Shown piece after piece: positions 2,448-58,941 of a stretch of 64,000 bases of DNA. This DNA is from Escherichia phage ECML-123-2, in sequence record OL631480; one strand, given 5' to 3'. The position numbers and the translations under genes are program-made. Numbering within the stretch: the first letter of the stretch is position 1; each line of letters opens with the position of its first letter. Below the pieces are notes generated by a model, which saw nothing but the letters and a program-made list of their open reading frames with translations, had not been told where the DNA came from and did not search any database.

Positions 2448-4264
2448 TACTGGCTCATCCATTCTTTACGAAGGTCAGCATTATCTCCCATGAGCATTTC
2501 AAAAAGCTCTTTCCAGTTCTCAGGAAGTTTAACAACATCATATACTGGGTTTTGAATCATCTCACGATATTCAGATTTTTCCAAAGAGCCAAGTCCTTTA
2601 ATATAACGGATGCTATGTTTAGGTAGAGCATCTTTGGCACTCTCATATTCAGCGACTGTATAAAACCATTCTTGTTTTTTACCGACCTGAGCGATGATTA
2701 CAGGAGTTTTGACAAAGCGAATTCGTCCTTGCTCAAACAATTCTGGCCAATTACTAAAAAACCCGAGCAGAGAAGGATAAATGCTTCCTAGACCATCATG
2801 GTCAGCATCGGTCATAATAGCAATATTATGATAATTCAAGTTTTCAGCTTTTTCACCAAGAACTAATCCAGTGATTGCGCAAATATCAAACAGTTCTTTG
2901 TTTTTAAGCATGTCAGCATATGACATACCCCAACTGTTGAGAACTTTACCACGTAATGGATAACCACCGTGAAGTTCTTTATCACGAACATCAATAAGAT
3001 ATCCGATAGCCGAATCACCCTCAGTCAAGAAAAGAGTAGTGTCAGCATCTTTACCACAAAGATTCGCTTTGATATGTTTATGAACCTTAGCTTTAGAAGC
3101 CTTTTTAGCTGCTTTAGTTTCTGCTGCTTTTTCTGCCGCCAATTTACGAGCCAAAGCAGCTTCAATAATCGGCATTAGAATTGCTTCATTATTTAGAATA
3201 GCACGTGAAATCTTTTTAGCATCAAGCTGAATATGACTACGGATTTCACCAAATGGAGAAGTCAAACGCTCTTTAGTTTGAGAATCAAATCGCATGTTTT
3301 TCATATCACGAACAAACATAACGATAGTCAAACATTCTTTAACACGTGCTTTAGTTACATCAATTTTGAACTTACGTTTGATTTGTGGAATAAGGTCTTC
3401 ACAAATATCATCCATAACACAGTCAATGTGATGGCCACCATTCTTAGTATGAATGTTATTAACGTATGTTAATTGACGAAAACCATCCGGTGAACGACCA
3501 ACCGCAATAGAACAATTTTCTTGTTCTTGAACAATAGCATGCTCATCATATTGGCGTGCATATTTCTTAAAATTGCCCTGAACCTTTTTACCATTAAAGG
3601 TAAATTGAATATCAGGATAAACTACTGCGAGTGTCTGGAGACGGTCCAGTGTAATGTCAAGATAAACCTGAGACAGCTCATTAGTTTCAAATGACATAAA
3701 ATCAGGAATGAAAGTAACACGAGTTCCTTTCCATTTTCCAGGAATATCTTCCCATGATTTATTTTCCATGCCATTTGAACAACGAACTACAATATTATTT
3801 TGACCATCACCAGTTTCACCGACAAACATCACAGAAAAAATGTTTGTCAAACTAGAACCAACACCATTCATACCGCCAGTGACACGTTCTTTATCATCAC
3901 CAAAGTTACCACCTGCTTTTGGAATAGTCCATGCAGCAACTGGACCAGGAATTTCTTCACCGGTAGGTGTTTTAACCATCGCTTGTGGAATACCGCGACC
4001 GTTATCTTCAACTGTTACCTGATTATTTTTAATGGTAACATTAATTTTATTTGCGAATTTAAACTTAGTACGAATACCTTCATCTACTGAGTTATCGATA
4101 ATTTCATCAATAAGCTTAACAAGACCAGGTACATACTGAACACTTTCCCATTTACCAAACAGAAAGCGCTCATGCATTTCATTAGCAGAAGAGCCAATAT
4201 ACATGCCGCTACGCTTTTTGATATGTTCAATATCGCTCAGAATTTTAATTTCATTCTTAATCAT
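2447..4264 (-). CDS. 39: DNA topoisomerase II large subunit, genes 39 and 60 fused in one ORF
   Basis: ORF starts MIKNEIKILSDIEHIKKRSGMYIGS (GHKL ATPase, GyrB-like); about 605 aa is roughly T4 gp39 plus gp60; track start is GTG, first ATG at 4264. Confidence 0.92.
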   Translation of the reverse strand: MIKNEIKILSDIEHIKKRSGMYIGSSANEMHERFLFGKWESVQYVPGLVKLIDEIIDNSVDEGIRTKFKFANKINVTIKNNQVTVEDNGRGIPQAMVKTPTGEEIPGPVAAWTIPKAGGNFGDDKERVTGGMNGVGSSLTNIFSVMFVGETGDGQNNIVVRCSNGMENKSWEDIPGKWKGTRVTFIPDFMSFETNELSQVYLDITLDRLQTLAVVYPDIQFTFNGKKVQGNFKKYARQYDEHAIVQEQENCSIAVGRSPDGFRQLTYVNNIHTKNGGHHIDCVMDDICEDLIPQIKRKFKIDVTKARVKECLTIVMFVRDMKNMRFDSQTKERLTSPFGEIRSHIQLDAKKISRAILNNEAILMPIIEAALARKLAAEKAAETKAAKKASKAKVHKHIKANLCGKDADTTLFLTEGDSAIGYLIDVRDKELHGGYPLRGKVLNSWGMSYADMLKNKELFDICAITGLVLGEKAENLNYHNIAIMTDADHDGLGSIYPSLLGFFSNWPELFEQGRIRFVKTPVIIAQVGKKQEWFYTVAEYESAKDALPKHSIRYIKGLGSLEKSEYREMIQNPVYDVVKLPENWKELFEMLMGDNADLRKEWMSQ

Positions 4265-4291
4265 CACTTATCCTCGTTTGGTTTCGGGAAT

Positions 4292-4317
4292 ATTATACTC
4301 CGGTAATCATAAAGCTA
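4292..4317 (-). promoter_or_regulatory. MotA-dependent middle promoter candidate for gene 39
   Basis: minus-strand aGCTTTA (MotA-box-like), 12 bp, TATAAT; about 30 bp upstream of start. Confidence 0.45.
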
Positions 4318-4336
4318 AAGGCCCGAAGGCCTTTTA
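4314..4336 (-). terminator. stem-loop with UUCG tetraloop after upstream lipoprotein gene
   Basis: aaaggcccgaaggccttt palindrome directly 3' of the stop at 4334. Confidence 0.5.
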
Positions 4337-4603
4337 TTTAAAACGAATAGTTGAATCCTTAAAGAACAGCCCAGAACATACTGTTCCTTCTACTTTCTGC
4401 CCAGTAGGTCCAATAGCACGAAATCCAGTATGTTGGAAATCATTTTCAGAACAACCGAACCAGTTATATCCAGTGATTTCAATATTAGTAAAACCGCTTG
4501 AAGACAAAACTTTGGTTGCATTATCAGCATCAGTACATCCTACTAAAGACACTGCTAATACTAATGCTGCGATAGAACGATTAATATATTTCATAATTTT
4601 CAC
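4334..4603 (-). CDS. small predicted lipoprotein
   Basis: 89-aa ORF; N-terminus MKIMKYINRSIAALVLAVSLVGC looks like a signal peptide with lipobox. Confidence 0.6.
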   Translation of the reverse strand: MKIMKYINRSIAALVLAVSLVGCTDADNATKVLSSSGFTNIEITGYNWFGCSENDFQHTGFRAIGPTGQKVEGTVCSGLFFKDSTIRFK

Positions 4604-4824
4604 TTAAATTTAATGGCTTGAAGAAGACTAATAACTCTCAAGCGGCTTCTTTCATCTTTAACTGTAAAAGAAAGAGGGTCACCAGATTTCATAGTGATAG
4701 TGCATTCAAAAGCAAAACCTTCGGGAACTTCTTCGAAGAAGTCAAATTCTTCATCATAAATTAGAACATTACTCTGCATACTGTGAAGAATTTTTCCGTC
4801 ATTTCCAGATGCTGTACTAATCAT
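4600..4824 (-). CDS. hypothetical protein
   Basis: 74-aa ORF, start overlaps upstream stop (ATGA coupling). Confidence 0.5.
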   Translation of the reverse strand: MISTASGNDGKILHSMQSNVLIYDEEFDFFEEVPEGFAFECTITMKSGDPLSFTVKDERSRLRVISLLQAIKFK

Positions 4825-11850: not shown

Positions 11851-12639
<789 letters not shown>

Positions 12640-12740
12640 TCATTTATTGCAGCAAAAATGAATTATACAATTCTTCATCATATGTATTTGATAGTAATAC
12701 TAACACGTTTTGCGATAAATATTAATTTAAAGGAGGACAT

Positions 12741-12941
12741 ATGGTACAAAAATTAATGGCACTTGTTAATGCCATAAAAGGTAATAAAAAACGTATAGCT
12801 TTTACTATTTCTGCTATGATAGGAATTTTACTTTGGAATTTTGTTTTATCGCCAGTTGCTATTGCTCATGGCGTTAGTATTCCAGTAGTTACTCTTGATA
12901 CATTCGTAGATTTAGCATTTGCTTTGGTTGGGTTAATTTAA
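12741..12941 (+). CDS. small hydrophobic protein on the plus strand
   Basis: 66-aa ORF with textbook SD aaaggaggacatATG; two predicted TM segments; convergent with gene 61. Confidence 0.5.
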   Translation: MVQKLMALVNAIKGNKKRIAFTISAMIGILLWNFVLSPVAIAHGVSIPVVTLDTFVDLAFALVGLI

Positions 12942-13966
12942 ATCTTGGCATATTTAGATAGCCTCATTTTAGCCATTAACCCCTGGGCAATATTATTTTT
13001 CATATATTCCATAATTTGTTCAGGGGTTGCACCTTCCTTTCTAATCATATCATTGACATCTTTTGATTTCCAGGGAGATTTATCCCAAAACATAACCCTT
13101 TCTCCTGCATCAACTAATTTAGTCATTCGCTTAATAGTGTCAGGGTGACGAGGTTCATTATCTAAAACCCACACTCGTCTATCTTTAAATGGAACAACTT
13201 CTAGGTCTAATTGACCACCTGTAATAGCTATACCATTTTCAATAAAAAGTGAATCTATAGGTCCTTCTAGAACATATACATCACCATCTTTAACTCGTTC
13301 AACACCGTAAATTTTTGTTGCCTCAGGATAAGCTTTAATGGTGATATATTTTTGAGGAGCATCTTTCTTTAATGCACGTCCTTGAAAAGACTCAGCTTTT
13401 CCGTTAGCATTATAAATTGGAATAACAAGACGAGGCTCAGGTGTTTCCTTTTTATATGTTCCTGGAGCTATACTATTAACTAATTTAGGCCATTCAGTTG
13501 TAAACCAAAGATATTTCCATTTATCCTTTGGAATACAACGAGCTTTTACATATTTTATAATTGGATGGTCTTCCGCCAATTTATCTAATCTGATGCATGA
13601 CGGAAGAGATTTAATTATTTTCTTCTCAGGTTGTTTAGGAAGTTCTTTAGGTTTTTCTACTGGACGACTTTTACCTTTTTCTTTTCTTATTTCAAAGATA
13701 TACTCACGATATAAATCAGGTTCAAACTCCTTTAAATATATTCCGATTGGTGCATGGTAGTTACAGTTATAACAATGAATATTTCCTTCATTATTATCGC
13801 CATAATACCATCCACGGGCTTTATTTTGATCGGTTTTTGAATCTCCACAAACGGGACATCTAAACCGTAATTTAAAAGTTGAACTATTATTTACTTGTGC
13901 GAATTTAGGTAAATGAGCCAATGCACGGTATGCAAACTCATTATCAATCCAAGGTATTGATGACAT
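12938..13966 (-). CDS. 61: DNA primase gp61
   Basis: 342 aa with zinc-binding CPVCGDS...CYNC and primase core; same size as T4 gp61. Confidence 0.92.
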   Translation of the reverse strand: MSSIPWIDNEFAYRALAHLPKFAQVNNSSTFKLRFRCPVCGDSKTDQNKARGWYYGDNNEGNIHCYNCNYHAPIGIYLKEFEPDLYREYIFEIRKEKGKSRPVEKPKELPKQPEKKIIKSLPSCIRLDKLAEDHPIIKYVKARCIPKDKWKYLWFTTEWPKLVNSIAPGTYKKETPEPRLVIPIYNANGKAESFQGRALKKDAPQKYITIKAYPEATKIYGVERVKDGDVYVLEGPIDSLFIENGIAITGGQLDLEVVPFKDRRVWVLDNEPRHPDTIKRMTKLVDAGERVMFWDKSPWKSKDVNDMIRKEGATPEQIMEYMKNNIAQGLMAKMRLSKYAKI

Positions 13967-17414: not shown

Positions 17415-18570
17415 TTAACTGTTCGAGGTCAGTTTCTAAATCAGCAGCTGATTTACTTTTACTTTCTGGAGATTTAAATTTTTCAACCTTTGAGTTAATC
17501 AATTCATCAACTTCAGCTTCAACAATTTCATTACTATCAATAGCACCTAACTGATAAGCACGTTTAATAGCATCTCGGAATGGTTGATGCTTAAATAAAG
17601 GACCCCAGAATGTAGTGCAGTTAGTATCTTTTGCACGCCAAGATTTTTCTTCGCGAATCATCTCGCCGGTTTCTTCGTCAAGAAATTCACGAGCATACCA
17701 ACCATTCTTAGGTTTTACTACAAATCCTAATTCTAGAGCCATATCTAACAATCCAGAATAAGGATCGATACCACCGTCAAATTTAACATCAATAAAGAAT
17801 TTACTTTTTTCTTTAACGGTACGAGATTTTTCTACATTTAGAACAAATTGATACCCCTGAAGATCAGAACCATCTTTAATCTGACGTTTACCGATAATGA
17901 ATACAGTATCAGCCGAATACATTACGCCTGTACCACCTGTCATCACGGTTTTACTAAACATTTCAATTGTTTCAATTGTATGGTTAACCGCAACACACGG
18001 AATATTTTTAATGCTAAAATAAGGAGTAACGATACGGAATAATGACTTCAGTGATTTAGCACGAGTCATATCTGCCACAGATTTTTCATTCAAGGCATCT
18101 TCCGTTTCTTTCTTAGAAGCCATATTACCAATTGAGTCGATGAATACTATAACCTTTTCACCACGCTCAATAGCTTCAAGCTGATTCACCATATCAATTT
18201 TCAGCTGTTCAACTGATTGAATTGGCGTATGAATTACACGTTCCGGGTCAACTCCCATGGATCGCAAATAAGCTGGAGTAATACCAAATTCGCTATCATA
18301 GAATAGACAAACCGCGTCAGGATATTTGTTCAAATATGCCGCAACCATAGTCAAAGACATATTTGATTTAAAGTGTTTAGAAGGCCCTGCGAAAATAGTT
18401 AAACCAGACTGCATACCGCCATCAATCGCACCAGAAATAGCAATATTCAGCATTGGAATTTTTGTACGGATTACATCCTTTTCATTAAAGAATTTAGATG
18501 TAGTCAGTTCAGCAGTCATTTTAGAAGTGGAAGCTTTAATCAAACGGGATTTTAAATCTGCAATAGACAT
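17389..18570 (-). CDS. uvsX: UvsX recombinase (RecA-like)
   Basis: 393 aa with GPSKHFKS P-loop; matches recalled T4 UvsX. Confidence 0.93.
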   Translation of the reverse strand: MSIADLKSRLIKASTSKMTAELTTSKFFNEKDVIRTKIPMLNIAISGAIDGGMQSGLTIFAGPSKHFKSNMSLTMVAAYLNKYPDAVCLFYDSEFGITPAYLRSMGVDPERVIHTPIQSVEQLKIDMVNQLEAIERGEKVIVFIDSIGNMASKKETEDALNEKSVADMTRAKSLKSLFRIVTPYFSIKNIPCVAVNHTIETIEMFSKTVMTGGTGVMYSADTVFIIGKRQIKDGSDLQGYQFVLNVEKSRTVKEKSKFFIDVKFDGGIDPYSGLLDMALELGFVVKPKNGWYAREFLDEETGEMIREEKSWRAKDTNCTTFWGPLFKHQPFRDAIKRAYQLGAIDSNEIVEAEVDELINSKVEKFKSPESKSKSAADLETDLEQLSDMEEFNE

Positions 18571-20380: not shown

Positions 20381-20632
20381 TCATTCCTTCTCTCTGATGA
20401 TAATTACTTGATTTGGCTGTGCAGACTTTTTAGTTTCACCCGCAATTGACCAAATAAATGTAATAAACCAACCAATAATTGACCAGTTAAACAGTAAAGA
20501 TGTGAAAAAGATTCCTACTGTCGATTTTGACCCACGCATCAAGGCGATGAACCATGGAAGCATGTATATAATAATAGCCAACACACCTGAAACTAAAACC
20601 ATAAAAATTGAACCTGCTACTAAAGTTTCCAT
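20381..20632 (-). CDS. imm: Imm, membrane protein for immunity to superinfection
   Basis: 83-aa two-TM protein between 42 and 43, same size as T4 Imm. Confidence 0.8.
   Translation of the reverse strand: METLVAGSIFMVLVSGVLAIIIYMLPWFIALMRGSKSTVGIFFTSLLFNWSIIGWFITFIWSIAGETKKSAQPNQVIIIREKE

Positions 20633-58410: not shown

Positions 58411-58941
<531 letters not shown>

Follow-up and report, generated by a model that had tools for sequence, protein, structure and literature searches.

A conserved gene convergent with primase gene 61 of T-even phages probably encodes a late, small inner-membrane protein

The closest described relatives of the gene analyzed here are RB69ORF029w, VR7ORF033w, and RB32 ORF030w, members of the protein family PHROG 2024, to which no function has been assigned. 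For RB69ORF029w, the prediction of Nolan et al. was a single transmembrane segment (residues 21–41) and no signal peptide, and in their 2006 work this gene figures among the "novel ORFs" without T4 orthologs. The gene that we describe has the length (65–66 aa), the position abutting the primase gene, the strand, and the predicted transmembrane helix of these family members, and it differs from them in nothing material.

The late transcription units of T4 provide a second term of comparison. [quoted passage not shown] A T4 late promoter consists of TATAAATA at −13 to −6, with an AT-rich segment downstream of this TATA box (PMC2988020). The octamer is perfect at 32 of 50 T4 late sites, nine have A at −13, and the others show different single deviations (PMC2988020). 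Position −13 is the most variable one among late promoters of the T4 family (PMC2988020; PMC1524935), and it is poorly conserved in related phages (PMC1524935). Cryo-EM has shown that gp55 flips out the adenines at −12, −9, and −8, into pockets (PMC7892883). The unit described here resembles the late units of T4 (e.g., genes 19, 51, 26, and soc) in its ATAAATA core, the AT-rich stretch downstream, the spacing, and the orientation. It differs from them in having G at −13 (the common variant being A), in standing alone within an early/middle block, in converging on an early gene, and in lacking a terminator of its own.

The window, i.e., the whole stretch of DNA analyzed (64,000 nt of Escherichia phage ECML-123-2, record OL631480), is a segment of a Tequatrovirus (T4-like) genome. 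Its positions 12500–13100 match phages Pinarejo and Elenatom at 100% identity and about 500 other records at 90–98%; the identity with Pinarejo was established locally, for this interval, and collinearity throughout the window does not hold. The initial annotation placed at 12741–12941, on the plus strand, a hydrophobic 66-aa ORF that converges on gene 61 and overlaps its stop codon, and such an ORF is present as described. It starts with ATG, has 66 intact codons, and encodes the product MVQKLMALVNAIKGNKKRIAFTISAMIGILLWNFVLSPVAIAHGVSIPVVTLDTFVDLAFALVGLI. The minus-strand genes on either side, dam (11851–12630) and primase gene 61 (12938–13966), leave between them a gap of 307 bp that the ORF mostly fills. 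Its stop codon (12939–12941, plus strand) and that of gene 61 (12938–12940, minus strand) overlap in the palindrome TTAA (12938–12941), which is common to both convergent TAA stops; the same layout is found in T4, RB69, Moonvirus CF1, and Klebsiella phage kv_tblp8. No minus-strand ORF of at least 30 aa lies inside 12741–12941, the gene 61 stop being the only overlap.

Gene 56, soc, 61.1, 61.2, and sp belong to the wider minus-strand block as well. In its first 30 kb, the window has 34 plus-strand ORFs with a length of 60 aa or more, so the length of an ORF alone is not beyond chance. All the others overlap minus-strand ORFs, and a spurious one at 4203–4607 is the only one among them to lie for the most part in a gap between long minus-strand genes. 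We agree with the initial annotation that this is a lone plus-strand gene in a minus-strand block, as far as credible genes are concerned.

Two other plus-strand candidates were rejected. The ORF at 4203–4607 (134 aa) has no PHROG match, and the minus-strand ORF that it overlaps (4334–4603) matches PHROG 902; a CDS has been called at the apparently corresponding place in Pinarejo. A 32-aa ORF at 12658–12756, also annotated as a CDS in Pinarejo, is almost certainly spurious. It overlaps the promoter, the Shine-Dalgarno sequence, and the start of the 66-aa gene; in T4 a 2-bp indel shifts the end of its frame, and Lutter-type phages have a different sequence in place of this region.

Upstream of the ATG there is a strong Shine-Dalgarno sequence, AAGGAGG, at 12730–12736 of the plus strand. 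It is part of AAAGGAGGA (12729–12737), whose GGAGG core ends 4 nt ahead of the start codon. A search of both strands of the 64-kb window finds AAGGAGG in a single copy, which is the one of this ORF. The claim of a textbook ribosome-binding site is thus borne out; the 8-nt distance that came with it is roughly right if one counts from the first G of the core (9 nt) and not from the end of the motif. Every ortholog compared has GGAGG or GGAGA as a core upstream. The predicted 5′ leader has 14 nt (12727–12740), if one places the start near 12727 following the −13 to −6 convention. The ten bases at 12722–12731, which follow the late motif and run into the leader, are all A or T.

Further upstream, the octamer GATAAATA (12714–12721, plus strand) occupies positions −13 to −6 of a putative late promoter. 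Counted from the ATG, it extends from −27 to −20, which leaves 19 nt between motif and start codon. The core ATAAATA (12715–12721) is complete, including A at −12, −9, and −8, and only the T at −13 of the consensus TATAAATA is missing, with G in its place. The spacing is that of T4. For 12 genes in a 50-kb stretch of its late genes (including 19, 51, 26, 9, 4, 22, 24, 53, 18, and 20), the gap from TATAAATA to the start codon is 14–28 nt, and the 19 nt of the ORF fit in this range. In the same stretch of T4, GATAAATA occurs only once at 100 nt or less from an annotated start, and there it adjoins a perfect TATAAATA upstream of gene 26. Hence, there is no clear precedent for GATAAATA as a sole promoter.

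The core motif is rare in the window. Counting both strands of the 64 kb, an exact-motif scan finds ATAAATA 11 times (4902, 12715, 14333, 56870, and 59327 on the plus strand; 11234, 39432, 52554, 58919, 58932, and 63125 on the minus strand), against 41 ± 6.7 expected. This is an approximately 4-fold depletion, and no shuffled sequence had so few copies. The deficit suggests that selection acts in the early-gene region against accidental late promoters. Nevertheless, the other four plus-strand copies (4902, 14333, 56870, and 59327) have neither a ribosome-binding site nor an ORF behind them, so that the motif alone is no proof of function. These copies could drive late antisense RNAs, or they could be inert.

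Among relatives, ATAAATA is kept at the same place upstream of the orthologs in spite of unrelated sequence around it. Counting the first base of the octamer from the ATG, one finds GATAAATA at −27 or −29 in the T4 group, AATAAATA at −30 in dam-less Tequatrovirus and T6 and at −29 in RB69, and CATAAATA at −24 in Gaprivervirus. The octamer is a perfect TATAAATA at −24 in Kanagawavirus ZX14 (and likewise perfect in IME523) and at −27 in Klebsiella phage kv_tblp8. The base at −13 in relatives is thus A, C, or T, as opposed to the G of the window. Exactly the octamer GATAAATA is marked as a promoter in the annotation of phage Lutter. On the other side, Moonvirus CF1 has just ATTAAATA at the promoter position, which counts against the assignment, and a published HMM scan of RB69 lists no late promoter upstream of RB69ORF029w. 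With a conserved core, two groups carrying the perfect TATAAATA, and T4-like spacing, the motif that had been noted as an imperfect, late-promoter-like element is very probably the promoter of the ORF. Strand leads to the same timing: as early and middle RNAs are made on the other strand only, a translated plus-strand gene must be late.

The coding status of the ORF can be assessed from its distribution and from its substitutions. The product matches PHROG 2024 with E = 8.1e-31, residues 2–66 aligning with positions 1–65 of the 65 in the profile, and divergent relatives and a second type of paralog (see below) match the same family with E between 1e-24 and 1e-27. Searches by tblastn with the protein of the window retrieve 692 phage records, of which 685 cover at least 80% of the query; a more divergent query retrieves 758, adding phages of Citrobacter, Enterobacter, and Klebsiella. 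The ORF is intact in about 700 records of Tevenvirinae from at least six named genera, including Moonvirus and Kanagawavirus. A Klebsiella phage without classification has it intact as well, and the protein of this phage groups with those of Marfavirus. Identity among orthologs is 86%–100% within Tequatrovirus, around 54% with Mosigvirus (RB69ORF029w), and around 48% with Gaprivervirus (VR7ORF033w).

Substitutions show the signature of purifying selection. The dN/dS ratios (Nei-Gojobori) are 0.10–0.15 both in Tequatrovirus and in Mosigvirus, and 0.34–0.44 in Gaprivervirus. Between genera, synonymous differences are saturated (pS = 0.66–0.81), yet the proteins remain 48%–54% identical. The eight distinct alleles of the T4 group differ at 20 sites, 12 of which are third codon positions and 13 of which vary synonymously; the seven replacements are all conservative (V/A, A/T, I/V, and S/N). 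Conservation, purifying selection, and the context of promoter and ribosome-binding site together indicate that the ORF is more than a product of chance. Judging from sequence comparison, it is a real, conserved protein-coding gene of T-even phages.

A minority of genomes depart from this pattern. In the T6 record (NC_054907), the start codon of the ortholog is ATT instead of ATG, and the CDS is annotated from Met6, which is 19 nt away from the Shine-Dalgarno core. A natural down-mutation, the use of ATT as a start, or a sequencing error could each account for this. A few isolates have truncated copies of the ORF. Such cases, together with T6, suggest that the gene is probably dispensable in the laboratory.

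The position of the gene is stable on one side and variable on the other. Without exception, in the window, T4, Lutter, fPS-65, L008, RB69, VR7, CF1, ZX14, kv_tblp8, OE5505, T6, and UPEC01, the gene lies on the strand opposite to gene 61 and abuts its 3′ end. The stop is shared with gene 61 in most lineages, and the overlap reaches 24 nt in ZX14. The other neighbor is dam in the window and in T4; an inserted 186-aa gene of PHROG 8706 in Lutter, fPS-65, OE5505, and others; gene 56 in dam-less Tequatroviruses, T6, RB69, and VR7; and MazG-like genes in Moonvirus, Kanagawavirus, and the Klebsiella phage. The PHROG 8706 gene lies on the minus strand between dam and the ORF in many Tequatroviruses (1631–2191 of the locus in Lutter; also fPS-65, OE5505, and CHD16UKE1). 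Its insertion accounts for a split of about 540 bp in many megablast matches, and the junction is directly upstream of GATAAATA.

Two types of paralogs can be distinguished. Type A is the kind found in T4 and RB69, and type B begins with MGTIFYQIWKL. Gaprivervirus has A and B in tandem, with type B sitting between the first copy and the primase gene. The second copy of VR7 (1701–1970 of the locus, plus strand) is unannotated and altered at its C-terminus, with an extension of about 70 nt antisense into gene 61. In UPEC01 both copies are intact, and the one of type B (601–801 of the locus, plus strand; 66 aa) is mislabelled "DNA packaging ATPase." Enterobacter phage IME523 also carries an intact, unannotated type B gene (around 362–571 of the locus, plus strand), with a perfect TATAAATA and GGAGG upstream.

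The protein itself can be divided into three parts. The first 18 residues, five of them Lys/Arg, make up an amphipathic helix. Residues 19–42, approximately, are a clear transmembrane helix with the invariant W32-N33-F34 and P38. Beyond the conserved A-H-G and P48-x-V50, there is a second hydrophobic helix containing the only acidic residues, D53 and D57, and the C-terminus (AFALVGLI) is hydrophobic. An AlphaFold2 model from a shallow alignment places helices at 2–14, 16–42, and 52–62, with a mean pLDDT of 74; given its small size and simplicity, no fold can be inferred from it. The distribution of charges suggests that the N-terminus is on the inside. The initial reading of the gene as coding for a small hydrophobic protein agrees with these data: hydropathy and the asymmetry of charges speak for a membrane protein, one transmembrane helix is clear, and the independent prediction for the RB69 ortholog covers residues 21–41.

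Similarity searches do not extend the family. The ORF has no match in Pfam at E ≤ 10, five relatives have no significant Pfam match, and scans against NCBIfam and PADLOC give none for the ORF. A profile search against the PDB returns a single chance match (E = 0.72). Among 1.84 billion representative proteins, a profile search finds seven matches, all to the same narrow family or to fragments of it. Foldseek comparison of the AlphaFold2 model with viral structures retrieves its own ortholog and two weak, uncharacterized phage proteins of 63 aa. In databases the protein is called "hypothetical protein" everywhere, apart from isolated and inconsistent automatic labels such as "Holin," "putative head morphogenesis protein," and "DNA packaging ATPase."

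Taken together, these observations make it likely that the ORF is a conserved late gene of T-even phages coding for an inner-membrane protein of 65–66 residues. After the onset of replication, RNA polymerase with gp55, gp33, and gp45 would start about 6 nt past GATAAATA, near 12727. With the strongest Shine-Dalgarno sequence of the window, the short leader should allow efficient translation. Following the positive-inside rule and the structural model, the cationic N-terminal amphipathic helix would lie in the cytoplasm, residues 19–42 or so would span the membrane, and the acidic hydrophobic C-terminal helix (D53 and D57) would be at the periplasmic face or beyond it. The late RNA would probably continue antisense into gene 61, with no terminator intervening, and early and middle mRNA of gene 61 would cross the ORF in the other direction, as an untranslated spacer toward dam and 56.

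What such a protein might do can be proposed only tentatively, because size, topology, and timing are the sole guides. It may have an accessory role at the cell envelope in the late phase of infection, for example in tuning lysis or lysis inhibition or in membrane integrity, without being a canonical holin. More speculatively, this overlooked late inner-membrane protein might modulate holin T, RI, lysis inhibition, or membrane-bound head assembly, and its transcript might act as a late antisense to the primase mRNA. Of the initial interpretation, the small membrane protein and the late promoter are supported, and exclusion, lysis timing, and interference with gene 61 as the purpose of the unit are conjectural.

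The single-TMD holin gp17.5 of T7 and the antiholin RI of T4 are natural comparison cases for a strict component of a lysis cassette, i.e., a second holin, a pinholin, or an antiholin setting the time of lysis. The product of the ORF is like gp17.5 and RI in size, in having at least one transmembrane helix, and presumably in late timing, to which one can add the strong Shine-Dalgarno sequence and the name "Holin" that the OE5505 ortholog bears in one UniProt entry. Yet this name was given automatically, once and without support, against hundreds of entries called "hypothetical protein," and no holin family appears among the Pfam, NCBIfam, or PHROG matches, nor is there sequence or profile similarity to holin families. 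Relative to holins, the polarity of charges is reversed, the charged part being N-terminal and a hydrophilic C-terminal tail being absent. The gene is also not beside lysis genes, as lysozyme gene e is at 58411–58905, around 45 kb away, and T4 is already equipped with a holin (T) and with antiholins (RI and RIII). We thus regard a strict lysis-cassette function as unlikely.

A different explanation is that the unit matters as RNA, late convergent transcription from GATAAATA shutting down the expression of gene 61 and of dam and 56 downstream of it, by an antisense RNA or by collisions of polymerases, with the ORF being incidental. It has in its favor that the plus strand beyond the ORF is free of terminator-like sites for over 3 kb, so that the late RNA should continue antisense into gene 61, barring termination by Rho. 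Furthermore, the 3′ end of gene 61 is always abutted or overlapped, and the transcription of both strands at some T4 sites is a precedent (PMC2988020). However, dN/dS around 0.1 and identity near 50% with saturated synonymous sites reveal selection on amino acids. The Shine-Dalgarno sequence is strong and conserved, the tandem duplication in Gaprivervirus gave two protein paralogs, and an Rfam scan of 12500–13100 finds no family at E ≤ 1. With the protein itself under selection, interference with gene 61 does not hold as the purpose of the unit, and this explanation is improbable. An antisense effect could exist besides the protein, but the pattern of substitutions indicates that it cannot be the main reason why the ORF is kept.

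On the opposite strand, a weak terminator-like hairpin, ATGGCATT-AACA-AGTGCCAT followed by TAATTTTTGT, lies at 12756–12775, inside codons 6–12 of the ORF. One such hairpin was found against 0.3 expected, with a folding z-score of −2.0, and the fPS-65 record annotates it as a terminator. No equivalent was found in RB69, at the homologous position of VR7, or in the Klebsiella phage. We have therefore rejected it as a conserved terminator of gene 61, and regard as possible, from its sequence, that it is the 3′ end or an attenuator of the gene 61 transcript in the T4 group only. Its bases would then serve both as coding sequence on the plus strand and as a 3′-end signal for a minus-strand RNA.

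A role in superinfection exclusion or in membrane anti-defense, in the manner of Imm or Sp or through inhibition of a membrane-bound abortive-infection system, is suggested by the small size and membrane nature of the protein, by a region rich in genes for host takeover and exclusion (sp is about 2 kb off), and by the restriction of the gene to T-even phages of Enterobacteriaceae. T4 Imm (83 aa; 20381–20632 in the window) is likewise a small hydrophobic membrane protein, but it is encoded on the opposite strand, belongs to another temporal class, and has no similarity to our protein: BLASTP against the Imm of the window gives no alignment at E ≤ 100. There is no PADLOC match either. The strand of the ORF forces late expression, whereas T4 Imm and Sp are on the early/middle strand, and instead of a pattern of presence and absence linked to host range, the gene is nearly universal where found. 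We therefore consider such a function doubtful.

Finally, a spurious frame kept open by AT-rich composition in the spacer between 61 and dam, as the 34 chance plus-strand ORFs with 60 aa or more in the first 30 kb and the omission from the curated T4 annotation might suggest, is hardly credible, being contradicted by the conservation, the selection, the Shine-Dalgarno sequence, the promoter, and orthologous frames that are for the most part uninterrupted.

The reading as a late inner-membrane protein gene applies to T4 as well. An intact copy is present there at 17738–17938, with 94% identity to the protein of the window. The gap between 61 and dam is left empty in NC_000866 and AF158101, and the exact protein sequence of T4 has no NCBI accession in a collection of 15 billion proteins, although the ORF is called in one recent T4 record with automatic annotation. 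It is because the T4 records omit it that Nolan et al. (2006) counted RB69ORF029w as lacking a T4 counterpart. The family as such is already catalogued and uncharacterized, appearing as "hypothetical protein" in hundreds of relatives, including Pinarejo and Elenatom. The literature consulted on T4 late antisense transcription, ribosome profiling, small ORFs, and essentiality screens does not mention the ORF, and the T4 omics papers that we found use the reference annotation, without it.

T4 is the reference for a large family of phages, and omics and functional screens mostly use its curated list of genes. As this list lacks the ORF at 17738–17938, the data sets that are built on it cannot see the gene. 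In other respects this is an ordinary uncharacterized accessory gene; adding it to the list of T4 genes would be a small but real correction.
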